Of a stretch of DNA of 64,000 nucleotides, positions 20,758-57,086 are shown piece after piece (positions within the stretch are counted from its first letter, which is position 1; the number at the start of each line of letters is the position of its first letter). The translations under genes were made by a program, and so were the position numbers. The DNA is from Bilabrum cf. latius (lineage: Eukaryota). The notes under the pieces are model-generated. The model did not search any database, was not told where the DNA came from, and worked only from the letters and a program-made list of their open reading frames with translations. Location of the stretch: NCBI GenBank assembly GCA_965178125.1, contig OZ237746.1:1116001-1180000 (forward strand). Reading direction: 5' to 3'.

Positions 20758-23700
20758 ATGGAATTCGCCCAAGTTGGCTTCGATGGATCTGAATCAGCCA
20801 ATAGTGCTACCAGTACGCAGCGGTCAGAGCGAGCCTTCTCTTCTTTGTTTTTGATGCCAAGCAGTGTGGCTGCGCTGTGGCAGCAGAAGTGAGACCGACC
20901 GTAGAAGCAGGGGGATCGCGACAACGCTTCCGAATGCCAGCGCATGAGCGTTGATTGGATCCTCCTTCCCACAATACACCGTTTTTTGGTTGCCGCAGGC
21001 GGTCCGGTGAGTCTGACACGGTAACTACACTAGCCTCTGCGATGACTGCGGCGCAAGCTGGCCGTAGACGCTCGAAGTAGCGCAAGACGGCACTGCCAAT
21101 CGGCGATCGCAACACAACCGGCGCCTACCAGCTCCGAGATGAGAATGCAGTCAGTTTGCTCGTATTCAAGGTGAGTTCAGCTCAGTTTCTGTCCACTAGC
21201 GGCTACTCGTCTGCTTGATCCGTCCCCAGCCCCGTCCGACGCAAGGCCTGCAAGCGCGTAGCTGGCTGCGGTGCTGCGAGTCGTGCACGGCCACTGGCCC
21301 CGAATAGTCGAGCTCCGCACCCCGATGCTGCGACTCATCCTCATTTCCATTCCATGCTCACTTGTATGCCGTTTGTCGCTTGCGATTTGCCGCTCGCAGC
21401 CCGAGGACGAGGAGACGGGCGCTGCTCTCAACCCCAGGGGCCACGCCCAGGCCCAGGTGCGCGCGGGCGTGAGACCCGGAGGGTGCGCCTCCCGCGAGGC
21501 CGCTGCCTTTTTGCTGGACCACGGGGGCTTTGCGTCTGTGCCTCCCACCGCGCTCGCCTACGCGCGGGACGGGGCCTTCAACTACGACCCGCTGGCTGTG
21601 GCCCGGGCCCGGGCCAAGGCGGCTGCAGCGATGGCCCGGAAGCGGAGGGCCAGGTAGGAGGCGCTGGCGAGGCGAAGGGAGGCGCAGAGGAAGAGGAGAG
21701 AGGGGAAGAAGAAGAAGGAGGAGGAGAAGAAACAGAAGCAGAATCAGTCTAATCGCAACACGACAGGGACAGGGGGCGCGCTGGGGGCGGACTGCGACAG
21801 CCGTGGCATGGGCCTCGGCCTGGGCGGGGGTCTCCTGAGGATCGGAGCACCCTCCGGCTTGGGGCAGAGGCAAGGGCAGGGGCATGCACCCGTGCGTGGA
21901 TTGGCCTACCGCAGTGTGGTGGGCATGCGCGCCGGCGCGGGTACCACGGGGATGGGCTTACAGGCCGCTGCTGGTGCTGGTGCGAGGGGCAGTGTCGTCG
22001 TCGTGCCCCAGATTGAGGGCGGGCTGCTGGCCCCCTCAACGGCCGATGGCAGCAGCATGGAGGACCAGCGACAGGACCGTGCAATGCACCCGATGGGCCC
22101 CAGCTCTGACACGAACACGTGCGCCACGCGGACCTCCAGCGCGCTGGCAGCGTCCACGGGCCTGACGATGACAGTGTCGGTCGGGGCTCCGGGTGCTCTT
22201 GCCGGCACTCGGGCAGGCAGAGAGCTGTCTGCGATCGAGGATCGAGGGGGCAGTGCTGGAGGTGGGGCTGGAAGTGACGCTGGAGGTGAGGCTAGCAGCC
22301 GGCTGCGCGCCTCCGTTCTGGGGAACAACAGCAGTGAAGGGGGTAGCAGCTCGGTGATTAGGGAGGCCATGTCATCCGCGGCCATGTCCGCCACGTCCTC
22401 ATCACACATCCGTGTCCCGCCCGCAGGACCGGCAGCGAGCTCACGAGCGGGGCCCACCACCAGGCCCCCGGGCGGGATCGGGGCGGGAATGGGGACGGGG
22501 ACGGGGATGGGCCAAGGCGCGATGGACAGGGAGGCAGGTGCCGGTGTCCCCTCCGTGGCGAGCAGCAGCCACAGCCAGCCCGCTGGCCAGCTGTCTCCGC
22601 CCGTGTCGCCCAAGGCCTCGCCAGAGGTGCGGCCGGGGTACGACCCGGATGCATCGCACGGCAGTGCCATGGTGCCGCTGCACCTGAGCCGCGGCATGGA
22701 GGGACACCACGATGCAGGCCACGGGCACGGGCACGGTCAGGGGCAGGGGAAGGGAGAGGGGAGGGGCGCCAGGACAGGGCCCCGGCGACGGCCCCGGTGC
22801 GGGTCGGCCGATCACCGCGATCTGGAGTCGCCCCCACCCCCCGAGGCCGTGGCCAAGTTCCTGCCCCTCAAGCTGGGCAGCGTGCAGCTTTTCGTGCCCC
22901 ACGCCTGCTCAGCGGAGGACGTGGGCAGCGGCCTGTGGAAGGCGGACCAGGTGCACCGCATCGGCATCCTGGACGTGAGGCTGTGCAACCTGGACCGGAA
23001 CGAGGACAACATTTTGATCCGGCCGTACTTCCACGATGCGGAAGAAGAGGAGTAGGATGAGCGAGAGCCGGTGGGATAGCGAGGGCGAGTTGGATAGGTC
23101 AGGCAGGCTGGCACCTCGGGTTGGCAGAGGGAGGCAGAGTGGGAGAGGGAGACGGAGACGGGTGGACCATTCACGCCGACAGTGGGCTCGCCACGGGTGG
23201 AGGGGGTCGGGGAGCAGCAGGAGAAGGGGCGGCCCAGCAACATCGCAGTGGCTGGATGGGCCGGCACAGACAGAGACAGAGACAGCGTGTAGGCGAGGGG
23301 CTCTCCGCGGGCCAGCAGCTCCCACCGCGAGGCCAGCGGGCTGCACCTGTCGGGCCTGGGAATGGACCTGGAGGCCGGTGTGGACGGCATGCACGGAGGC
23401 GATGGGGCCACGTCCCGGGACACTGGCGAGTACCGCCGGGGCCAGGGCCCGGATGGCAAGGAGGGCGCCACTCGGTGTTCCTCCGCGTCCTCGCGGGGAA
23501 ACGGCTCCTACCTCCCGCCCGTGCCGCTGGACGTGGTGCTCGGGCGAGTGGCCTCCAATCTATCCGGGTCTGCCTCGAGCACAGCGGACGATGGGACCCC
23601 CACGCCGTCAAGGTTCGAGGGCCGGGCGGATGCGGCCCCGCTGTGGACTACAGGGGGGGGCGACAGGCGGGCCGACCGGCCGGCGGGGGTGGACCTGCCG

Positions 23701-26700
23701 AGCCCGAGCCCGAGCCCGAGGCCCGGAGACAGCCCCGGCCCTCGGACGGGAGGACTCCTCGCCGGCGCTGAAAGTGGAGGAGCAGGAGCAGCGGGACAAG
23801 GAGGCAGCGGGTCCCTCGCCTCGTCCAGGAGCTCGCTGCCGGGGGATGCAGAATCCACCGGTGGATCGTTGAGCGAGGCCGGCAGCAGCTCGCTGATCCC
23901 CAGCGCGCGGCTGAGCGCCTCCGAGACCGAGAGCGACTCGGGGAACAGCGAGATGCTGGACCGGCTGGAGTCGGCCGCCCTCGGTGCCAGACAGGGAGCC
24001 GTTTCCTTCTGGGCGCAGTACCTGCTGCTGCAGACCACGGAGAGGAAGATGGCCCGCGCGAGGAGGGCGCAGCAGAGGCGCAGGCAGAGGCGAGAGAAAG
24101 ACCGGAGGAAGAGGCGGAGGAAGAGGCGGGCGGGGACGAGAGGTGGAGGGGGGGGCGGCAGGGGCAGGGAAGCGGGGCACAGCGCGCCGGAGACAGGTGG
24201 TAGAGAGGGGCTGGAGGAACACGGGGGTGCAGGAATTGGTGGCACAGGTCACCAGCACAGGTCCAGCTCCGGCCGCCTGCTGCAGGTGAGCTCTAGCTCT
24301 AGCTCTAGCCCCAGCCCCGACCCTATGTAGGGAGGACAAGGTGGGAGAGAGGGATTCGGAGCCGGGGGCTCAAGCGAAGACGCCCCGCAGTCCAGCCGCA
24401 TCGACTCTGGCACCTCTGTGGTGGACGGCAGCCTCCCCGCTGGGAGCCCCGCCTCCCTGGCCCTGCCCTCCAGCTCCCCGCTGAAGGGGCCCGGCCAGGC
24501 GCCTTTCCCGCTGGGAGAGAGCGCGCATGAACAGGGGTAGGGGCTGCAGCAGAGCCCCATGGATGGCAGGGGCAGGCCTCTGCTGGTCGGCGGATCTGGA
24601 GAGGTGGAAGTCGGTGGGAAGGGCTAGGGCGGGGGCCGGGAGGGCGCGGCTCTGGGCGGGTTCGCGTTGGGCGGGCCCGCGGCACCGGCTGGGGCCCGGG
24701 ACCGGGGCGCTGGTGCGGGCGAACTCGGTCCTTCGGGTGCAAGGCACGGTGGTGCAGGCGGTGGGGGCATCCTCGGGCTGGGCTCATCCCTTGTGTCCCT
24801 GCAGCCGTACCAGGAGGGCGCGCAGCAGGTGCTGCTAGCCGATGCGAGTGGGAGTGGGAGTGGGAGTGGGAGTGGGAGTGGGCAGTAGCAGGAAGTCCAA
24901 GATCGAGCAGCAGTCGCAATTCCAAGCACTGAGACTCGCTAGGGTCGGACGGGTGACCAGCCATAGGCAACGCCCGATGCAAGCACCTGCAAGCATGTCA
25001 GCAACAGCAGCAGAGCTATGGATGGCGGCTCGTCGACGGTGGTCCGCAGCATCTCGGACGGCAATCTCGCGGCCATGCAGGGACGCGCCCGCATCGCGCG
25101 CATCTCCGGCGACCCGTGGACCGACCAGACCGCGAGTGGCAGGGGCAGGGGCGGGCAGCCAAGCCTTCACCCCCTGGGCATGGGCATGGGCATGGTGTCC
25201 CCCATGCTCGGCCCAACCCCGACCTCGCTGCGTGGGGTGCAGCCCGAGAGCCGCCGTCAGGGGCCCGACCTGGAACTGGACATGGACTTGGACCTGGACG
25301 GCGACGCCCACGGGCTCAGCCTCACGGGGCCCATGGCCTCGGACGACCCTCGGCTGGGTGGGGTCAGTGACAGTGACAGGGACAGGGACGGGGACGGGGA
25401 CAGCAAGGGCCTCCTCGGCGCCGAGGAAGTTGGGGCGGTCCTATCGGGCGGGGGCGTGCAGCTGACGGGGCTGGCAGAGGCGGACCGCAGACGGGGCGTG
25501 CGCCGCCCGCCCACGATCCTGTCTGCTCTTTCGTCCATGTCCACGGGGAGATCCTCCGCCGGGTCACCCAGCGGCAGCCATTTGCACACACCGGGGGGCA
25601 GGGAGGGGGAGGGGGCATCGTCTGCGTCCTCGTCTGCGGTGGAGGGGAGGCCTCCATCCGGCCGAGGTTGGCGAGCTGGTGCTGGTGCTGGTGCTGGTGC
25701 TGGTGCTGGTGCTGGTGCTGGTGCTGGTGCTGGTGCTGGTGCTGGTGCTGGTGCTGGTGCTGGTGCTGGTGCTGGTGCTGGTGCTGGTGCTGGTGCTGGT
25801 GCTGGTGCTGGTGCTGGTGCTGGTGCTGGTGCTGGTGCTGGTGCTGGTGCTGGTGCTGGTGCTGGTGCTGGTGCTGGTGCTGGTGCTGGTGCTGGTGCTG
25901 GTGCTGGTGCTGGTGCTGGTGGCGCAGTGCCTGGCCCCGTGCGTGCTTCACCGCCTGCTGTGCCTCCTAGTCGGCTGGTGCTTGCAGCAGGCGCCGCTAC
26001 CACAGCCGATGGTGCTGCATCGACTCACGATGGTGGGGCTGCACTGCCAACCTTGTGCCTGACACCCACAGCGGACAGCGAGGAAGACCAGCGCGGGATC
26101 GGAGGCGCTGCAGGGGGTGCAGTCGCCGTCGCGGCTGATGAAGGTCGCTCGTTCGAGGGCAGGGCTGGAAGGGGACAGAGGCAGGTCCCGGCCGGTGCGT
26201 CTGCTTCTGCATCGATGCTGCCGGCCATGTCCCCGATGCTGTCTGGATTCGCTGGGCCCTCTGCCTCGGCTGCCGGCGATGCATCCATGCCCGCGCCTGC
26301 AGCAGCCTCGGCCTCTGGTCGTGGCCTACAGGCTGAAACTGGCACAGGCGATGGGCAGTCGCGATCGAAAGCAAGAACAGAAGACAGCACCTCGACCTCG
26401 GCCCAGGGCGCAGAGACAAGGCCCGATGACACCAACGCGGCCCGCCAAGGCCCGGAGAGCCCGCCCCGGCTGGCCCGCCCTCGCACTCGCGCCGGCGAAT
26501 CGACTTCCAGTGCGCGGCTGCAGGGGGAAGCGCAGCAGCCGCCGGTCATCGGCGCCTCTGTGCCGCCGCACCCGCAGAGCAGCCCCGTGGACACGACAGC
26601 CACCGCAGAGCCAGGAACCAAGCATGCCGGAGACAGAGGGGCCGACTTGACCAGCGAGAAGAAACCTCCATCGAAGAGCAGGTACGTGCCCCCATCCGCC

Positions 26701-29652
26701 CGCAAGCAGAGCGGCTCAAGGTACGTGCCTCCCTCCCAGCGCAAGAAGCAGCAAGCCGAACAGCTGGGCTCGGGGGATACCTTGCCGCCGCCCACGCCGC
26801 TGCTCGGGGCCATGGGGGTGCCGCAGGGCGCCATCGACGCGGAGGGCTCGCCGCTGGTGTCCGGGGCGCATGGGCAGGGGCTTGGTGTCCTTAGTGTCGC
26901 TGCTGCAGCTGCGTCCAGCACACAGGGCCAAGGCCAGGGCAAGAGCAAGTACCGGCCCCCGACTCGCCGCACTGAAAAGGGTAAGTCCTTCCTCGGGGCC
27001 ATCAAGGGGAGCGGGGCAGTGCCTGCAGCAGCCACCGACGACGCTGTCGGCGCGGGTACCCCCGCGTCCAGCAGCGACGATGGCCCCCCCTCTGCGGCGC
27101 TAGCCTTCATCCTGGGCGCCAAGGAACACACGGGGCTGCGGCTGTCTATGGAGGAGCCAGGCCCCGGCGGGGCCACTGTCACGGCGGCCACCACGGTCGC
27201 CCGCACGCAGCAGCAGGGAGCTTCGGGCCGGGCCAGAGCCATGTCCCCGAGGGCCGTGCTGGAGCGGGAAATGTACCCGGCGGGGGCGGCGGGGCGGGGA
27301 GCTGGGGTGCGAGGAGACGGAGGGGCCGCCTCGGCTGCCGCGGATCGGCGCGAGAAGGGGAAGGGGCGCGCAGGTGGTCCCGGGCGGGGCCGGCCTGGAG
27401 TCAGCAGCGGGCGGCTGCCCTCCTCCACGCTGTCCCTGCGGCGCGCGCGGCGGCGCAGGCGGGGCCTGTACAGCACAGGGGAGGTCCCTGGGATCGGCGT
27501 CTTGCCGCAGGGACCCGGGTCCATGGGCATGCGCGGGATCAAGCTCCTGCGGGCCGCCACGCGCCTGGAGCTCATCCCGATCGACCACGGGCTGTGCATG
27601 CCCGACGCCGACGTGCCCGACGCGCTGAACGACGTGAACTGCTCGTGGCTCTTCTGGCGACAGGCCAAGGAGCCCTTCAGCGAGGCGAGCCTGCAGTACA
27701 TTGCGGCGCTGGACGGGCGGGCAGACGCGCTGCAGCTGTGGAGGGTGTTCGGGCCGGACGGGGGCGCGGACGACATCAGGGACGCGGGCAGGGGGCCGGG
27801 AGAGGACGGGGCGGGGGCGGCGACCGCACGGCCCGCGGCCCGGGTGACGCGTGGCAGCATGCTGTGCCTGCGGATTTGCACGCTGCTGCTGCAGCTGGGC
27901 GCGTCTGCCGGGTTGAACCTGCACGAGATCGGCAGGTTGATGATCCGGGGGCCCACGTACTCGCAGGCAGACCTAAGGAGACCAGACCCCCTGTCTGGGA
28001 GCAAGCGGCTGGTGCTCAGGTACGGGGGGCCGCTGCCGAGGGATGCGGTTGCTAGGCACAGGGGTGGTCAAAGGGAGGGAGAGAGGCGGGGTGCTGCCAG
28101 TGGGTGGGCGCTGGCTGCAGGCGGGGATGGGGACGGCAGCGACTCGGCCCGTGCCAGTGCCAGTGCCAGTGCGGGCGGGAGCAGGCTGGAGGCGGGCTCA
28201 GGGGCCTCCACTGGGGGCATGAGCGGAGGCACCGGGGCCGACGTGCACAGCTAGGGGCACGGGCGCGGGCACGGTCACGGGCACCACCGGCTGTCCATCC
28301 GACTCCCCCGACTGGCCGACATCGAGCCGTACCTGGTGAACCCCCAGTACCAGCCCCCGGACCATGACCCAGACGGGGAGAGCGGGCCGTTGCGCAGGAA
28401 AAGGAGCAGGGGATCCAGCGCGGTCATTTCAACACCGACCCCAGCACCGACCCCCTCGCTGCTCGCAGGACACTCGGGTCCCGTGTGCGCCGAGGTGGGC
28501 ACGGTGGGTGCCTCTTCGACCACGGGTGCGGCGGGGCGGAGCCACTCGGGGTCTGGGGGCGGCACAGCGGGTGGCGGTGTGGGGGCGGGGGCGGGCCCCG
28601 GAGAGGACGAGGGCATGATCGGCGGGCGGCGGTGGTCGGGGCTGGAGATGGCCCTGGCGGGGGCTCGGCTGGAGCAGCACCGCCGCTGGGCCTCGAAGGC
28701 ACGGGCGGCGGCTGTGGCAGTGACGGGGGCCGGGATCACGTCCAGGGCCTCGCGCACGTCGCTTCAATCCATGGAGGAGGCCGGGCTTGAGCAGGGACAG
28801 GGGCAGGGGCAGGGGCAGGAGGCGACCGGTCGGGGTGGAGCAGGCGAGGAGGCGGCCCACTCGAGTGCATGGGGGAAGCACGGGCACTGGCACCAGCACG
28901 CCCGGCCTGTCTCTGCCTCCATGGACTCTGTGCCTGGGCTGGGACTGCCCGTCACGGAACCTGGGGATCAGGGTGCTGGAGCTGCCTCCTCCGTCCATGC
29001 GACCGGACCTGGACGCGCCAACAAGGACGAAGGGGAACAAAGGGAAGGGCCCTCTGCCAGGCCCGGGGCCAGGCAGCCGCTGATCCAGGCCCCCCGCAGC
29101 AGGAGCAGCAGCAGCCTACGAGTAGCAGGCCGGGGCCGTGTACCCCCCGGCGGTTCCAAGCTCCGAATCCAGGCGCAGGTGCAGGTGAAGGCGCCAGAAC
29201 GGCAGCAAGGGCAAGGGCAGGGGCAAGGGCAGGGGCAGGGGCAAGGGCAAGGCAAGGGGCAGGGCACTGTTGCATCGCAGTTCCCTACAGCTGCGGTCGG
29301 GCTAGTGGCGGGCCAGAGGGGTGGTGGGGCTGGCCATCTAGGTCGCAGCGCAGGCGCAGGGTCAGGTTCAGGTTTAGGGCTAGGGACGGGACCGGGCGAA
29401 TCTGGTGCCAGCGGGGCCGCTGGAGGGGACGGTGGCGGCAACGGCCAGCTGGCAACGCCGGGGGACCGCCGGTCGGCTGGACCAGTTGGACCGGAGACTG
29501 GGCGCCCGGGGGAGCCGAGCTTCCTGGAGGAGCAAGACGAGCTGGTGTATCTGTTCCGGCACGCGATCGAGCCCTTCCTGGCCCTGGCCATCGTCAGGCG
29601 GTCCGAGGCGGGCTCGTCCTCAGCGGCGGGGTTCCGCGGGATCTTCGGTTGA
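20758..29652 (+). CDS. Type II PI4-kinase (PI4K-gamma-like) of about 2850 aa with very large low-complexity insertions; exons 20758-20888, 20999-21170, 21400-29652
   Basis: GAYQLRD..VFK|PEDEE..NPRG, REAAAFLLDH..VPPT, KLGSVQLF, VHRIGILDVRLCNLDRNEDNILI, LIPIDHGLCMP and WLFWRQAKEPFS. The frame is open for 8.2 kb apart from TAGs; TGA stop. Exon 1 is tentative. Confidence 0.8.
25675..25920 (+). repeat. Perfect (GCTGGT)n hexamer microsatellite, about 41 copies, encoding (Ala-Gly)n inside the PI4K ORF
   Basis: Directly visible tandem repeat. Confidence 0.98.
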
Positions 29653-30191: not shown

Positions 30192-30385
30192 GTTTAAGCC
30201 AACATTGTTTGCGGTGTAATGCCTCGGGTCGAGTGCGGAGACGCTGCAACCGCTGCATTTTTCGAAAGGCTCCGGGTTCCCAGACATTGCTTGCCGAGTA
30301 AAGCAAAATATCAGCAGTAAATTTCAGTATATTTAATTGAATATGTAAGGATTCGCTGCTGCGTGCGTATCATCGCACCGCTGCC

Positions 30386-33265
30386 ATGCATTGCTTGGAA
30401 CACTGCAATGATGAGAGAGTTCGATTTGGAATGCCGATGCGCAGGCCGAGAAAGCGAGGCAGAACCCGCAAAAAAAAGCAAAGGCAACAAAAAACGGCGG
30501 CAGATGCGCGCAAAGAATTGTATCGTTCGCAGGAGGACAGGTTTTGGTCCACTCTTTCCTCTGAATGCAGAGGCTTCGAGCGCAATGTCGAGGCACTTCG
30601 GCGAGCCTGCGGTCTCGGCATGGGAAGCCGCCACCGGATCGTTGGCGCAACCAATCTGATTGAGCTTGGATCTACTGTACTGCTTCGTCTGATGGCGGGC
30701 GCGATCCGCCTTGGAGACAAGGGCGACCGTCCTCCTGTCCCCGGCACTCCGGACATGTGCGGCGAGTACGGCATGTTTTTCTGCGACATGTGCTCGATGC
30801 TGCAGGTGGACGAGCCCAGGCCCAGGGACGGCTTCACAGACATGGCCGCCCGCGACCAGCGTGTGGGCCCGAATCCCCTAGGCCCGGCCACTGTGTGCAT
30901 CACGGCAGAGGCCATCCGGCTCATGCTCGTCCGGGTCCGCATCACGAGCAACTACCTCTACGGGCCAGAGTTCGGGGACGGGCCCGCCCGCCTGTGGCTC
31001 CCCAGCATGCAGGACGGCCGCGGCTCGTTCCTCCGGCGGCCCCCCGCTGAGGCTCTCCTGCAGTGCCCTGCAGTGCCCCCCGCGGGGCCCATGCTGCAGG
31101 ACGAGGCCGGGTCCGAGTGCGACATCACCATGGCCTCGCAGTTCTCAGGGGCGTGCCTGTCGGCCTGGTCCATGCGTCCCACGGACGACACGGTGTGGAA
31201 CCACCACCCGAACGAAGAGCGGGTCGCGACACGAACCAGGGCAGGCAACCGCCACGCCGCGCACACGTTCTTCGAAGGGCATGAGGCTATGGTGCAGGTC
31301 GTGCCGGGCATGGCCCGATGGGTCAGGAGTGCGTTTTTCCCCGGCAAGGGAGCCATGGACTGTGCCAGGGGCATACCCAGGCCCGACCTCCCGCCACGCA
31401 TGCTCCCGGGCGCGCCCCTGCCCAAGCACCCCGCCACGGCGGGGGAGGCTGTTGGGTTCCTGGCCCCCATGCAGCTGCTGGCGGCCGCGTGCATGTACGG
31501 GGGCGCGGACGATCTGGCTGCGTACGAGCTGAGGAAAGTGAAGGGTGGCCATTCGATGACGATGTCGTCGCCGCACGAGGTGCTGCCCGTGGTGGGCAAC
31601 CAGTGCAGGGGTCGGCTGGAGACGATCTGCGGTGCGTTCTGGCTGGGCCTGCAGTACCTGGACATGCGAACGGAACAAAAGGGTGCGACTTCCTCCGGGG
31701 GTGACGGCGGGTCTGTCTCAGCCGGGCAAGGAGGAGACGTAGAGGGCGAAGGCGACGGCATGGCGGCCTGTGGCGGGTCAGAATCAGTAGGGAACGATGG
31801 GGGCAAGCCTGCAGAGAGCGAGGAGAAGGAACGCGGAGGCGCTGGAGACGATGGAAGGGAAAGGGAAGAGGGGATTGGGGCCGTACACCCGCACGCTGCA
31901 GCAGAACCCGCAAGCAGCGGAGCCGGTGCAGATGTAGCCGGTGCCGGTGACGCCCAAGCCGAAGCAGAAGCAGAATCCAGCGCTGCAGCATAGCCCGGCA
32001 GCCCATCCCAGCGGCCCATGGGTGCCTACCCGCAGCCGTCCGACTACCGCCTCATCCGCTGCATGGCCGAGCTCATGGACGGGGCTGCCATGGCCATGCT
32101 CTACCTGGCCATGCACAGGGCAGTGAGCAGGCAGGCGGTCACGGGCGAGACATGGCACCTGTACTTTGGTATGCTGCCGAACCTGCTGCAGGACTGCGTG
32201 GCATTCGAGACGAGGCACATGGGTCAGCTGGAGGACAGCGATGCGGAGGATGCCATTCCGTGGGCGCGCAAGTTCACAGGGCAGCTCAAAACCACCACCA
32301 AGGCGGCAGGCGTGGCCGATGCGTACCGTCTGCTGCTGCTGCAGACCGGTGGTTGGCACGACGGGATCCGCGCGGCCACCATGCGGAGGAAGGCCGAGAT
32401 GGAGAACAAGGACAAGGACAAGGACAAGGACGAGGCCGGGTGTGCCGGTGCCAGAGCCGGCGATGGAGACGGCACGAGTCGGGGTGGCGTGGCGCTGGAC
32501 GAATCTGGCAAGTGCCTCCTGGAGCGTGTCCTGGATCTGTGCGAATAGGGGCGATCCAGTGGGCTGGACGTGTTCAGCAGGGGGGCACTGGGTCGGGTGC
32601 TGGCGGCGGCCGTGTGGTATCATGAGGAGGATGATCTGTCGGAACACGCCGGCAGGCTGCGGACGGTGCTGGAGGACCTGTGGGGTGCGGTGGATGATTC
32701 ACTGAGCAAGTACGGGGGGCATGGGCTGGCAGGCATCACGGACATGCGTGTGGACGAGTACTCGGATGCTTAGGTGGCCGAGGATGCGAGGGTGGTGAGC
32801 AGCAGGAGCAAAGATGGAAAGAAGGGGTAGGAGGATAAGGTGCTGCCCGACCTGTCAGACAGGGGCAGTGGCAGGTGCGCCTCTAGGCCGATCGCAGGGT
32901 ACTTTATGCTGCAGCTCCCCACGCACGGGACCAGCGTGCAGCACTACGTGGGCGCGATCGAGCTGCACGCGGCATGCTTCCAGAGAGGCATGCAGAAGGA
33001 GGTGCCCATGCTGCCCAGGTCTGTGCACCTGGCCATGCGCGCCCCCCGCTTCAGGCACTGGGTCAAACAGTACGAGTGGCTGTGCGTGGATCCGCTGCGG
33101 CCGCCGAGCGAGGCGGGCAGGGGGAGGAGGACGGGGCGGTCTGCTCTTCGAAGGCACACTCTTTCGGTAGCAGCCGCGCTGAAGCGGCTCGTGAGCATCG
33201 TGTCGACGGATCGGGTCCTCGCCCTCTTGCGGTTCCGGCAGGCGGCGGTTGCGACCGCGATGTAA
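30386..33265 (+). CDS. Uncharacterised protein, tandem paralog A (basic NLS-like N-terminus)
   Basis: ORFs 30386, 32018, 32570 and 32840 are in one frame and are joined by TAGs; colinear similarity to paralog B; TAA stop. Start is uncertain. Confidence 0.7.
31319..31536 (+). repeat. 218-bp block duplicated at 34354-34571 between the tandem paralogs
   Basis: Base-by-base reading shows apparent identity from tgggtcaggagtgcg to gagctgaggaa. Confidence 0.9.
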
Positions 33266-33522
33266 TGCGCCTTGTTCGCAGCCGTTGGTTGTACGATACA
33301 GCCTGCGAAACTGCCTGCATCGCCTTTCGTCGCGTTTAGAATAATGTGAGGATTCGGTCAAAATTGCTAGTACTCGGAGCATGTCAGTGATTTTAGGGGA
33401 ACTGATACACTTGGCCGCCCAGTGAACAGCTTCGCAGGACTCGAAAAAGCAAGAAAGGCAAGTCAAAGACAAGGGCAAAACGGGAGTGGGCAGCTCCACC
33501 AGGGCAGCCTCGAAAGTACGTA

Positions 33523-36162
33523 ATGTTTCCCGAACAAGTTTCCATTGGATCAAAGACGTGGGGATTCCTGAAACTAGAGCGATCTTAGCTTCAGCAGCGA
33601 ATCGTTGATCTCAGGCACTGCATGAGGCTAGCGACAGGGCCTACGATGCCTTCGAACGAAAATATCAATAATTCATCCGATCCACGAATACAGTTTGCGG
33701 GTGTGGGCGGACTGCTGGGAGGATTCATGCGTCTGGCTTGTGGCCCACCGGGCACGGCCAGACCAGGGAAGTTCTCGGGCAGCCCTGGGCATTACAGCTC
33801 CGCACACTACTGTGCCTCGTATAATATGACTCGCCATAGATCGAATGAAGGGTACGATCAAATGGTAGCCGCAGACGGAGAGATCAACGACACGTGCTTG
33901 GGCCCGCCCACCGTGTGCATGACGGCTGAATCCATCCGGATCATGTTGGCCAGGTACATGGTAGAGACTAGGTTCCTGCACGGGAAGCAATTCGGCGACG
34001 CTTCTTCCCTGTGGCTGTAGCCACCGCGGAGGGCATTCGGCCGCTCCTGGCTTCCCTTCGAAGAGTTCCTGCGCTGCCCCGCAGCCCCCATGCGCGGCCC
34101 CACGCTGCATGACGGCCGCGGCGGGCGTCTCCCCGGCAAGCTGTCGCACCTCGTGTCCACCGCCGTGTGCTCGGCCTGGAGCATGCGGCCCAGCGACCGG
34201 ACCCCGTGGCTTGAATCATTCGTGGACGGGGGCTTCTGGGAGACATGGGACCCGGACGAGGGAGGCTCTGCCGTGCCACGGCGCATATTCGCTGACCACA
34301 ACCTGAACTACGGGAGGGAAGCAGCTCGGGCGTTCATGCCCGGGCTGATCGACTGGGTCAGGAGTGCGTTTTTCCCCGGCAAGGGAGCCATGGACTGTGC
34401 CAGGGGCATACCCAGGCCCGACCTCCCGCCACGCATGCTCCCGGGCGCGCCCCTGCCCAAGCACCCCGCCACGGCGGGGGAGGCTGTTGGGTTCCTGGCC
34501 CCCATGCAGCTGCTGGCGGCCGCGTGCATGTACGGGGGCGCGGACGATCTGGCTGCGTACGAGCTGAGGAACAGCATGAAGCGCAGGACAAAGGAGCACA
34601 GGCCGAGACCAGAGGCTGACGACTACAACTACTTATCCGAGTACGAGTGCGACATGTACGAGCGCATGGGCTGCGACCCGGATGACATGGTGGACTCGTA
34701 CGGGTACGGGGGGGAGGAGCCGGAAGATCCCGACGATGAGTCGCTTGGACTGTCGCCGGACAGACACGGTATTACAGCCACCAATGCGCTCAAGAGGCTT
34801 GAGACAATCTGCGCGGCATTCTGGCTGGGCCTGCAGTACCTAGACATGCGAACCGAAGCAGGGCGGTCAGCAGCAGCTACAGCCCAAGGAGCAGCAGGGG
34901 GGCATTCATTGGCAGCTACTCCTTGCGAGAGTGGTGCAGGCAATGGTGGTGCGCCGGTGACTGGCAACGATGCTGCAGCTGGGGCTGCTTCAGCTGCCAG
35001 CCTGCACAGTTCTGTGGGTGCCTACCCGCAGCCGTCCGACTACCGCCTCATCCGCTGCATGGCCGAGCTCATGGACGGGGCTGCCATGGCCATGCTCTAC
35101 CTGGCCATGCACAGGGCAGTGAGCGGGTAGGTGATCAAGGGCGAGACATGGCACCTGTACTTTGGTATGCTGCCGAACCTGCTGCAGGACTGCGTGGCAT
35201 TCGAGACGAGGCACATGGGTCAGCTGGAGGACAGCGAGGCGGAGGATGCCATTCCGTGGGCGCGCAAGTTCACAGGGCAGCTCAAAACCACCACCAAGGC
35301 GGCAGGCGTGGCCGATGCGTACCGTCTGCTGCTGCTGCAGACCGGTGGAGCGATGGACAAGCTTCGAGAGGCCAGTGGGCCTGTGAGTGCTGCCGCCTCC
35401 ACTGGCAGCGGAAGGATACCGCTGGGAAAACTGCACCAGCCCCTGCCATCCACTGGCAAGCTTGCTGGGGGCGAGTAGACCGGGGCAATGCCGCTTGCTG
35501 CCGTTGCTGCGCCTTGCAAGTGCCTCCTAGAGCGTGTCCTGGATCTGTGCGAATAGGGGCGATCCAGTGGGCTGGACGTGTTCAGCAGGGGGGCACTGGG
35601 TCGGGTGCTGGCGGCGGCCGTGTGGTATCATGAGGAGGATGATCTGTCGGAACACGCCGGCAGGCTGTGGACGGTGCTGGAGGACCTGTGGAAGCACGCA
35701 GATGACTGGATCATGACGAATGGCGGCCATCCGCTGGCGCGCCCGTATGGCCCCGCCGCACAGGCCGGTGCACCCTCCGAGAACTACCCCAGGCCCGCGT
35801 TTCTGATGCTGCAGCTGCCCACGCACGGGACCATTGCGCAAGGCATCGTAGGGGCGATCGAGCTGCACACAGCGTGCATGGACCGGGGTGTGGGCGATGT
35901 GCCGTGCCTACCGAGGTCGGTGCAGCTGGCCATGCGAGCTCCCCGCTTCAGGCTATGGGTCAAAACGTACGAGTGGCTGTGCGTGGATCCGCTGCGGCCG
36001 CCGAAAGAAGAGCGCAGGGGTCGAAGGAAGACCGAGCCTTGGCTCCGTGGATCCACGCTGTCGGTGGCAGCCGCTCTCAAGTCTCTTGTAGACAGGCGGG
36101 CGGCGGAGCGAGCGAGGTGCGTGGCGCTGTTCCGGTCAGCAGCGGTGCGCTCGGCCCTGTGA
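33523..36162 (+). CDS. Uncharacterised protein, tandem paralog B
   Basis: ORFs 33622, 34090, 35131 and 35578 are in one frame and are joined by TAGs. Shares GPxTVCxTAExIR, WVRSAFFPG..YELR, GAYPQPSDY..LLQTGG and WLCVDPLRPP with paralog A; TGA stop. Start is uncertain. Confidence 0.7.
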
Positions 36163-53555: not shown

Positions 53556-53620
53556 TTATCTTCGTCCCTCGCTCCCGCCGTCCTCCTCTTCTCGGATGAC
53601 CTCTGCCTCCACCACACCTC

Positions 53621-53683
<63 letters not shown>

Positions 53684-54974
53684 CCCCGCCCTCCACGGCG
53701 GACCAGAGCATCTGCACCGTCGCGTCGTGCACGATGGACAGGTCCAGAAACCTGCCCCCGAGCAGCCGCATGGACTGCGCCCACACGCTGTTCTGGTGGA
53801 AGTACCGGTCGTGGTCATACACGTCCCCGTCCCCTTCCACACCGCCTCCACCACTGCTGCTGGACGACGACGACGGCTCCGGCCGAGGGGGCGCCTCCAG
53901 CATGGCCGGCATCAGCGCCAGGTCGCGCACAGCGTCCCCGGTTGCAACCACGCAGCCGGGCATCTCTGGGAATCCCAGCTCCACCTCCCCTCGGGGGGTC
54001 CTCGCGGCGGCCCCCGTTGCGGGGTCCCTGACCGGCTGCAGGCGCATCATGTCGCAGCCCACCACGATCTTGAAGTCCCTGGCCTGCGCGGCGCCCTCAT
54101 CCATCAGGGCACGGATCTCGGTCAGCTTGCCACCCGCGCACAGCCCGGACTTGGTGAGTCGCACGGCTCCCTCGATGGCGTCGTACGGGTGCAGGATGAC
54201 CATGCGGCCGTCCCCGAGACCGCCCTGGAACGCGTAGTTGCGCCCGATCTCGCCCAGGTCCAGCTTGGCCATCTCCGCGGCCCGCACAGGCAGCGGACGA
54301 TTGATGGCCACCGTCAGCACGTCCACGCCCCTGCCTTGGTCGGCGGAAGCGCCGCCGCCGCCGCTGCCGTCCTCGGCCTTGGTGGCCACCACGCCCAGGA
54401 CCAGCCTCACGTCCCGCGCGTAGTCCGCAGCCATGGGGTTAGCCACGATGATGGACCCCGTGCCGATGCTCTCGTCCACTTTAAGCCCCCCCTCGATGCC
54501 CTGCAGCTCGGGGAGGCCCATGTCTTCGCTCGCGAGCTGGGGCGTTGTGGTCTGGATCAGGCTGGAAGCCATCTGCAGGGCAAGCGCGCCCACGCGCATG
54601 TGCTCTCTATACTCATCGGCGGCTGCATTCGATTCATCGGATGCCGAGGCAGCTTGGGACTCGCTGCCGGCCCGTGCCAAGTCCGATTCGATCCCGAGGA
54701 CCTCGGGGTTCCGGAACGATTCGCGAAGCACCTGCGAGAGCGTCGGCAGGTCGCCGTGCCGAGCTGGTTCATAGAGGCCAACTGGCTTGAATAGCGGCTC
54801 AAGCCTGCGTGCAAGGCACCGCGTGTACGCATCGGACGAATCGCGACAAGAGGCCAAAGGCGCAGCCAGAAGCGAGCGAAAGGCCAGATTCCTGTCCATC
54901 ATTCTTGCCGTCCGCATGAGAGCGCGATACAACGACAACGAAGATACCTTTTGAGACACCTAACTCGCGCTCAT
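53556..54974 (-). CDS. DUF179/UPF0301 (AlgH/YqgE-like) domain protein with N-terminal LYR-like motif and polyQ
   Basis: GSIIVANP..YARDVRLV, INRPL, QGG..LH, DFKIVVG and WAQSMRLLGG; LYRALMRTAR near the N-terminus. The ATG at 54974 is reached through one TAG; TAA stop. Confidence 0.65.
53622..53678 (-). repeat. (CAG)19 polyglutamine tract
   Basis: (ctg)n on the + strand, in frame in the DUF179 gene. Confidence 0.95.
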
Positions 54975-55120
54975 AATGTACTTGGAGGCCTTGCAGGAGC
55001 AAATACTGTAGTTGCCGATTGCGTGAGGCATTCTAGCAGCGTGACGAGTGGACTCGGACTCGATCGGATCCGGCTCCGGCACGTTGGCGCCAAAACCGAG
55101 CGAGCACAACTCGCTTGAAA

Positions 55121-57086
55121 ATGGCTGCATCTGGAAGGAGTGCCTGCGATGCCGTGCTTGAAGCTAGGAAGAAGGATTATAAGAAGAGTATCACGAAGGA
55201 AGAATCGCGGATGAGCAGGACTTAGACGACGATTTAGATCCGGAAGAAGAAGCAGGAGGAGATGCGCGCGAAGCGCCGCCGACGAGTTGCGCCGTCTCAA
55301 CCGGCCGGATCGGCTGGCGAGGCGGGGACATCATCTGATACAAAGGGTGGTTTCTCTCACGAGATCCGCCCGGTTACCACCGGTCAACTGCCGGAGGAGA
55401 TCTAGGATGCGCACATGGGCATCTACAGATAGCGTGAGCAATCGATCGAACCAGCGTCTCGAAGCGCAGGTGCTGCCACGTTAAAGGACCATGATTTGTT
55501 GTATTAACAACTTGAACATTCCGCTCTACTCCGCTCGCTTTCCTTTGCCTTCGCGTTGTGCTTATGCCGCAGACTTGCTGGGCGAAGACCCGAAGACGCA
55601 GCTGGAGGCTGCATTTTGCGTGCGGAAGCTGCTCTCTAGGGAATCAAGGCCTCCCACAGAGGCATTCCTTAGGACGGGCGTGCTTCGCCGCGTGGTGGAG
55701 CTCATGCAGCACACGAGCGAGGCCCGCATGCAGTTCGAGTGCGCCTGGATCCTGACCAACATCGCCTCCTCGGAGCACACGAGCGTCGTGGTGGAAGCGG
55801 GGGCCATCCCCGTGCTGGCGCACCTGCTCAGAAGCGCAAACGTGGACGTCAGGGAACAGTGCATCTGGTGCCTGGGCAACGTGGCGGGCGACGGGCCCCG
55901 CCTCCGTGACGCCGTGCTCGCCACCGAGCACACGGTGCCCAACATCATCCTCAACATCCAGAACTCGCCCAGGCCCTCCGTGCAGAGGAACGCCGTCTGG
56001 GCACTCTCCAACATGGCCCGCTTCAAGCCGGCGCCCTCCCCCCGGGCCGTCCTCGCCGCCGCAAAGGCCTTCTCGCACCTGGTCATGACCACCTCGGACC
56101 AGGAGGTGCTCGTGGACAGCTGCTGGGGCCTGCAGTACGTCACTGACGCGGGGCCCGAGCTGGTGGATCTCGTGGCTAGGTCTGGCGTGCTGCCCCGGCT
56201 GGTTGGGCTCATGGCGGAGGGCTCCAAGTCGCTGGGCACTCCGGCGGTTCGGTGCGTGGGGAACATCGTCGGTGGAGACGACAGCACGACGGACCGGGCC
56301 ATCGAGGCGGGTATCCTCGAGGCGCTGGGCCGCATGCTGGACTCGCCCAGCAGGAACCACAGGAGGGAGGCCGCATGGGCGCTGTCCAACGTGGCGGCGG
56401 GGACCAAGACCCAGATCGCCAGGCTGTGCAGCACCCCTGGCCTGCTCGCCAAGCTGGTGGAGCGCATGGCCACGGACGACCAGCTGGTGCAGAACGAGGC
56501 GTGCTGGACCATCTGCAACGTGGCCGCCTCGGGCAGCCCCAGCGACGTGCTGTGCCTGGCGCAGGAGGGGGCCATCCGGTCCCTGTGCCTGATGCTCACC
56601 AAGCGGCTGCATAAGGTCCTGCACATCTCGATCGGGGGTCTCACCGCCATCTTCAAGCTGGGCAAGGACAGGGAGGCCAAGGGGCTCTCACCGGCCTTTG
56701 ACGATTTCTACGCCGAGTTCGAGGAGGCCCAGGGGGTGGAGGTCATGGAGGAGCTGCAGGACCTCGATGACGAGGAGCTGGCCAAGAAGGTGGACAAGTT
56801 CGCGGACGAGTTCCTGTGCGTGGAGGACGAGGAAGGCGAGGACGGCATGGGGATGGGAGGGGGCGACGAGAACAACGTGGCCTAGGGCGGACAGGCGTTC
56901 TCCTTCGGGATCACCTCGGGGGCGGCGGCCGCTGCCTCGATGAAGCCGCCGCTGGGGAGCAGCGCTGGGGGAGGGGACGGGTGGGGCAGCTTCGGGCAGG
57001 CGGCCTCGGCTGGCAACACGGCTAGCGCCACTGCCGGCGGAGAGACGGGCGGCTGGGGCGATTTCTCGGGGGCCTCGTGGAACTGA
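55121..57086 (+). CDS. KPNA: Importin subunit alpha; exons 55121-55433 and 55573-57086
   Basis: IBB domain RKKDYKK..RT(TAG)TTI(TAG)IRKKKQEE..KRR; ARM repeats (FECAWILTNIAS, WCLGNVAGD, WALSN); phase-1 intron 55434-55572; TGA stop. Confidence 0.93.

Follow-up and report, generated by a model that had tools for sequence, protein, structure and literature searches.

In the nuclear genome of the bicosoecid described here, a relative of Cafeteria, UAG appears to be read as glutamine genome-wide, with UGA and UAA as stop codons, a pattern corresponding to genetic code 15. Judged from sequence comparison, the probability of this reading is about 0.93. By its closest matches, the organism is a bicosoecid stramenopile, a single-celled marine-type flagellate near Cafeteria. 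The assembly searched (G000) comprises 48.6 Mb in 111 contigs; the window, a stretch of 64,000 nucleotides of contig C12, contains an importin-α gene with in-frame TAG codons.

An importin-α gene with five in-frame TAGs

The preliminary description of this DNA had reported TAGs at 55223, 55235, 55403 and 55430 in the first exon of an importin-α gene. All four are real and in frame, at codons 35, 39, 95 and 104 counted from the ATG at 55121, but a fifth, at 56883–56885, had been overlooked. The features are as follows.

55121..55433 (+): first exon of importin-α, encoding the IBB domain and a linker in 104 codons and one further base; Pfam IBB match
55223..55225 (+): TAG codon 35, predicted Gln; CAA in the metagenome ortholog L107; Glu 47, Asp 30 and Gln 3 in distant homologs
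55235..55237 (+): TAG codon 39, TTIxIRK position, predicted Gln; Gln 44 and Glu 12 of 93 homologs; Gln in the paralog on contig C3
55403..55405 (+): TAG codon 95, variable site; Lys in 46 homologs; GCA in L107
55430..55432 (+): TAG codon 104, adjoining the splice donor; Ala 40 and Gln 29 in homologs; GAA in L107
55434..55572 (+): GT..AG intron, 139 nt, phase 1; spliced out in contigs of runs X1, X2 and X4, which join 55433 directly to 55573
55573..57086 (+): importin-α exon 2, ARM repeats and Gly-rich tail, ending in TGA; Pfam Arm, E 1.3e-46, six stretches
56883..56885 (+): fifth in-frame TAG, codon 542; Glu in the database protein P0003 and in 23 homologs; following tail conserved in P0004 and L107
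59316..59318 (−): TAG codon 45 of the downstream gene, within its Pfam DAO match (residues 26–219, E 3e-38); coordinate derived from the frame

Read through its TAGs, exon 1 matches Pfam IBB with an E value of 5.5e-10 (40.1 bits, cut-off 23.8), which bears out its earlier identification as an IBB domain; its best PDB matches are importin-α. The splice to the ARM repeats is in phase, as had been proposed: the intron is skipped in transcript-like contigs, and the joined frame of exons 1 and 2 is open for 608 codons up to the TGA at 57084–57086. Beyond TAG codon 542 there are 66 conserved codons before this stop, and the C-terminal end of exon 2 matches that of P0003 (97% identical), P0004 and L107. 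Under standard-code annotation, the IBB domain is already missing from the database proteins P0003 and P0004. The order of IBB domain and ARM repeats is that of the importin-α family, but the window gene is a divergent second paralog, and its Gly-rich tail of about 65 aa, common to P0004 and L107, is unusual for importin-α. The tail (56886–57083) contains repeated Gly-Trp-Gly motifs. At E 0.01, Arm_3 was listed for other matches and not for the window protein, P0003 or P0004. The evidence supports an intact, spliced second importin-α of 608 aa whose TAGs are sense codons.

Residues at the TAG sites were taken from an alignment with 120 importin-α homologs. Only site 39 favours Gln, in agreement with the earlier assignment of Gln to the TTIxIRK position (44 Gln and 12 Glu among 93 homologs that have a residue there); Gln does not dominate the remaining four sites, and site 35 is Glu or Asp in 77 of 89 homologs. 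The five sites by themselves could not separate Gln from Glu by sequence. Since exon 1 alone leaves the question open, the rest of the genome was tested.

TAG is apparently denser in 5′ exons: besides the four in window 55121–55433, there are two in the eRF1 N-domain (L061:2051–2572) and two in exon 1 of L107 (L107:1376–1673), while the overall density is 4.3 per 1000 codons. Those of the eRF1 N-domain could serve feedback control of eRF1. TAG is also found right at a splice donor, or a single base ahead of one, in importin-α exon 1 (55430–55435) and in eRF1 exon 2 (L061:2401–2405).

A cDNA check across the first exon had been proposed earlier. Runs X1–X4 originate from two studies; none of the runs listed is recorded as RNA, and their RNA nature is only guessed, although the splice itself points to mRNA. 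Contigs of X1, X2 and X4 cross the joint of 55433 and 55573 with exon 1 retained. The intron is skipped in three of the four runs; X3 has no contig covering exon 1. The spliced contigs begin at 55116–55120 and thus include this exon. Those of X1 and X2 show 0 differences from it, TAGs included, so UAG is unedited in the majority form; X4, a diverged strain, has seven differences, and the six listed all lie outside the TAGs. That UAG is edited to a sense codon in mRNA is extremely improbable: no support for editing was found, the X1 and X2 contigs, a type of sequence that drops rare variants, carry no variant letter anywhere in exon 1, and a tRNA with anticodon CUA exists. By sequence, UAG is retained in the mRNA, and TAG, frequent within frames, behaves like CAA and CAG.

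L107 (Ga0136560_1000952), one of six metagenome loci found, is an importin-α ortholog 69% identical to the window gene, with the same upstream neighbour and a 136-nt intron at the identical position. Its frame is kept, with 205 of 415 identical residues using changed codons. All four TAGs in its ARM region stand opposite CAG in the window gene, and its CAA stands opposite window TAG35. A Gln codon is paired with TAG in five of the 11 TAG-bearing codon pairs of the two importin-α genes; the other six have Ser (TCG at codon 39), Ala, Glu or Val codons opposite, and the upstream gene has no TAG/Gln pair among its two TAG-bearing pairs. The swapping of TAG with CAG and CAA indicates that the code is common to lineages whose proteins differ by about 30%. 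The other metagenome loci, L108–L112, are distant importins with no sign of the code. A divergently transcribed gene at window 53556–54900 (−), with no Pfam match, is 71% identical in L107 and has the same position there.

A second, more canonical importin-α with an IBB domain is present at C3:272423–274280, and the window gene alone thus proves little. No TAG was found in the three aligned segments of this paralog (IBB, 40 aa; ARM, 131 and 265 aa). A third, more degenerate importin-α-like copy lies at C3:311387–311773. The earlier argument that a housekeeping gene could not tolerate four true stops is weakened by the C3 paralog; its result, that the TAGs are sense codons, stands, with the proof coming from the rest of the genome. 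The window gene might also be a pseudogene, or its TAGs assembly errors, the C3 paralog doing the job: the paralog is the more canonical one, the window IBB domain lacks the Arg run at positions 31–32, and four TAGs per 104 codons is clearly above the genome mean. This explanation is scarcely credible and is largely refuted already by the spliced contigs and by the kept frame and changed codons of L107; moreover, TAG is found in eRF1, Prp8, GluRS and all 10 dyneins. The preliminary description had named, as evidence against itself, a transcript starting downstream of exon 1 and a TAG-free paralog beside an unexpressed copy. Such a paralog does exist, as far as its aligned segments go, but the contigs and the L107 frame contradict both a downstream start and a copy that is not expressed.

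Codon statistics and gene ends

Searches of the genome for ARM, eRF1, dynein and Prp8 revealed in-domain stops that were all TAG. Ten of the dynein heavy-chain loci listed, with frames of 3333–5044 codons each, contain 177 TAG and no internal TAA or TGA in 45,738 codons. In a comparison with 120 outside homologs, TAG in columns at least 90% conserved stands opposite Gln at 22 of 33 sites (Glu 4, Arg 3, others 4). In the same class of columns, CAA stands opposite Gln at 28 of 40 sites, CAG opposite Gln at 241 of 342 and GAA opposite Glu at 38 of 52. Log-odds summed over 143 TAG sites, columns with fewer than 30 homologs (34 of the 177 sites) being dropped, give +55.2 for Gln and −58.5 for Glu, the next residue; the same score finds the right residue for 8 of 8 control codons. 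The column profile of TAG correlates with those of CAA (0.985) and CAG (0.972), the next codon reaching 0.458, and the strongest enrichment among TAG neighbours is for Gln, as with CAA.

A sense meaning of Glu or Tyr, or of Gln mixed with either, would agree with Glu or Asp at importin site 35, with Glu at position 542 of P0003, with two TAG sites of dynein D6 in Glu columns (116/118 and 88/120) and with the CUA tRNA, which has the Tyr pair C1:G72 and an anticodon loop that differs by a single change from the tRNA-Glu(CUC) loop. Glu is also somewhat commoner opposite TAG (4/33) than opposite CAA and CAG (16/382; p 0.065). The mean homolog frequency of Glu, however, is 0.119 in TAG columns, compared with 0.127 for CAA and 0.317 for GAA, and that of Tyr is 0.007, compared with 0.46–0.49 for Tyr codons; Tyr is the top residue in none of the 33 highly conserved TAG columns. 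Such a meaning is consequently very unlikely: Glu, hinted at by importin sites 35 and 542, was rejected in view of the dynein statistics, and Tyr, hinted at by the tRNA body, in view of the TAG column profiles. Pyrrolysine, the default label of ARAGORN for CUA, was rejected too, as Gln columns account for the sites. Opposite one TAG of GluRS, two homologs of known structure have Trp and Tyr, which counts against Gln.

In a 464-kb sample, internal TAG occurs in 60 of 87 modelled coding frames; annotated with the standard code, most long genes of this lineage are cut short. The density is 4.3 TAG per 1000 codons, and 284 of the 2909 Gln-type codons (9.8%) are TAG. Elsewhere in the window, 13 TAG are found in a 2825-codon frame at 21175–29652, which encodes a PI3/PI4-kinase-like domain in split form as well as a long Gly-Ala repeat, and two tandem paralogous ORFs of 974 and 918 codons at 30341–36162 have near-identical blocks and no Pfam match.

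UGA and UAA are retained as terminators, and both are seen at gene ends. The coding signal is lost within 10 codons of a TGA (45) or TAA (10) in 55 of the 87 sampled frames. Prp8, eRF1, the window importin-α and the seven dynein genes with retrieved ends likewise close with TGA or TAA; TAA is the terminator of eRF1 and of one dynein. A ciliate-type code with UAR as Gln was rejected, given the zero in-frame TAA in the dynein codons and the genes ended by TAA.

Another explanation gives UAG two meanings: Gln within genes and, for the minority of genes that end in it, a stop. The other 32 frames have unresolved ends, and in eight of these TAG lies within 10 codons of the coding drop, where 2.8 would be expected. 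The sequence after TAG is non-coding-like in 14 of 278 cases (5.0%), compared with 12 of 365 for CAA (3.3%), 45 of 2174 for CAG (2.1%) and 50 of 55 for true stops. The last 30 codons of resolved genes hold three TAG, with 7.1 expected, and eRF1 keeps T32, E55, S70 and YxCxxxF. On the other hand, the control codon CAT is equally in excess near the drop in the same 32 frames (9 versus 2.9 expected), several of the eight TAG cases read on as coding, one of them within a poly-Gln run, and the genes with known ends listed above close with TGA or TAA. A double meaning is thus unlikely, and Gln with UGA and UAA stops is the preferred reading.

The CUA tRNA and eRF1

A single, well-formed tRNA gene with anticodon CUA is located at C23:907607–907679 (−); it scores 69.8 bits, the highest among the nuclear tRNAs listed, and is followed by a T run. 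No second CUA tRNA was found among 13 other pattern matches and one three-mismatch match (one of these is a mitochondrial Arg tRNA). No UUA tRNA was found among three matches to a pattern blind to intron-bearing or long-armed tRNAs; the presence of a CUA tRNA and no UUA tRNA fits UAG-only reading. The genome has one GlnRS and one GluRS match, and no duplicated GlnRS; the single GlnRS would charge the CUA tRNA with Gln, and this tRNA would decode UAG.

The CUA tRNA was compared with 22 other nuclear types recovered, a set that leaves out Leu, His, Asp and most Ser. Over 73 positions, its identity is highest to Tyr(GUA) (50), followed by Glu(CUC) and Gln(CUG) (44 each), Gln(UUG) (43) and Trp (40); totals of at least 50 are reached by 5 of 224 unrelated tRNA pairs. 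With Tyr it has 10 of 12 acceptor- and anticodon-stem pairs in common, where 224 unrelated pairs reach a maximum of 8, by a measure picked after the data were seen. Two points speak against Tyr ancestry: its D stem is identical to the Gln(UUG) D stem, and its core is matched best, among phage tRNAs, by one annotated as tRNA-Gln. The phage tRNA matches are generic and annotated as Arg and Gln, and the CUA tRNA pattern has 0 matches in viral contigs.

The CUA tRNA is nearest to tRNA-Tyr and not to tRNA-Gln, which makes an identity switch possible, and on the strength of its sequence it may have switched identity. It carries C1:G72, A37 and G73, where the Tyr determinant would be A73. Gln is reportedly accepted by an E. 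coli amber tRNA-Tyr that carries G73, but the literature searched held no confirmation of this. C1:G72 is given as the eukaryotic Tyr identity pair (Table 1 in PMC9976931), the eukaryotic Gln determinants being blank in that table; bacterial Gln determinants include G73, U35 and A37, and several amber tRNAs take Gln in E. coli (PMC9976931, PMC2965240).

A tentative scheme, about which doubt is considerable, describes this as the first nuclear code change in a stramenopile. A copy of tRNA-Tyr (G34 to C) would have become a Gln carrier, keeping the Tyr-type acceptor and anticodon stems with C1:G72 and gaining G73, A37 and a Gln-type D stem. Before its final assignment to Gln, UAG would have had an ambiguous stage or one of suppression by Tyr, and eRF1 would have lost UAG by a route sparing T32, which is intact.

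Near-identical Met(CAU) tRNAs on C3, C5, C7, C9 and C25 (L030, L046, L050, L058–L060) have six of seven acceptor pairs equal to those of Pro(UGG), and a Pro(UGG) tRNA lies 250 nt from one of them; this likeness is possibly another tRNA recruitment.

The single eRF1 gene has four exons, two TAGs in its N-domain and a TAA end; the other match of the eRF1 search we take to be pelota. Compared with 95 full-length homologs (of 120 matches), TAG44 stands opposite Gln in 89 of 94 and the TAG at 69 opposite Leu in 89 and Gln in 6 of 95. T32, E55, S70, NIKS and YxCxxxF are intact, while G29A, N30D, I35V, S60V, N129S and K130H differ from Cafeteria and most homologs; with TAG read as Gln, L69Q is a further N-domain change. 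The changes beside the GTS loop (G29A, N30D), S60V in TASNIKS and Leu69Gln might weaken UAG recognition; as eRF1 is divergent elsewhere too, the N-domain changes are not necessarily the cause. UAG reading has been linked to T32G in Iotanema and to L69A in exLh (PMC5304391); the accessible part of PMC12440015 holds nothing on the sites in question.

Lineage and known codes

The best named matches of dynein and eRF1 are from Cafeteria roenbergensis (eRF1, 69%). In a FastTree tree of one dynein gene (1741 columns; 31 rows, namely 30 chosen from 120 matches and this genome), the organism is sister to the Cafeteria clade with support 1.0 and 71% identity. C. roenbergensis is the closest named relative, but its eRF1 N-domain motifs are canonical and its database proteins are full length.

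UAG and UAA are nearly always reassigned together. To our knowledge, the few decoupled cases mostly come without a full genome holding both the tRNA and eRF1. Here both genes are in one assembly, and the eRF1 motifs of Cafeteria are canonical, so that two open questions become testable: which eRF1 changes lead to the loss of UAG only, and by what means GlnRS would come to charge a CUA tRNA.

The type of code is already known, and the lineage appears new, although this code may already be declared in the record of the assembly. UAG-only reassignment to Gln is covered in PMC9161772, PMC5304391 and PMC11687900 for Iotanema, Hartmannula, Trochilia and Protocruzia. Iotanema spirale, a fornicate, has the same UAG = Gln with UAA and UGA stops (Panek et al. 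2017, PMC5304391). Its eRF1 carries T32G; in this genome T32 is unchanged, and the neighbours G29 and N30 are the altered residues. Its tRNA, for which an origin from tRNA-Gln(CUG) was predicted, had not been detected, whereas here the tRNA was found and is closest to tRNA-Tyr. In the ciliates Hartmannula sinica, Trochilia petrani and Protocruzia tuzeti, UAG alone is read as Gln, as here; the suppressor tRNA was undetected in H. sinica and T. petrani (PMC11687900), in contrast to the CUA tRNA of this genome.

Other decoupled codes share the change of UAG apart from UAA and differ in the amino acid: UAG = Leu in the rhizarian exLh and TARA phyllopharyngeans, UAG = Ser in Scotinosphaera, and UAG = Glu with UAA = Lys in the ciliate PL0344 (PMC5304391, PMC11687900, PMC10553269). 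Like this genome, exLh alters eRF1 position 69 (L69A). According to the parts of these papers available, their suppressor tRNAs, where found, resemble the tRNAs of the delivered amino acid, unlike the one described here. The list of UAG-only cases in the accessible part of PMC11687900 names no stramenopile, and no stramenopile nuclear code change was found in the literature searched (mostly open papers, without supplements). Stramenopiles thus apparently join the groups with altered nuclear codes.

The mitochondrial contig C111 (38.4 kb) has clustered tRNAs, including one with anticodon UCA, which is probably a Trp tRNA for UGA; a UCA tRNA is likewise reported in the mitochondrion of the bicosoecid Cafileria (PMC6723347). 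Contig C12 contains tandem rDNA at 950271–1029808, with about 10 18S copies of 1700 nt at a spacing of about 9.5 kb. A different 18S of 1802 nt lies on an 18-kb contig (C95:6099–7900; L042); it is probably from another eukaryote in the assembly, presumably a dinoflagellate-like one.
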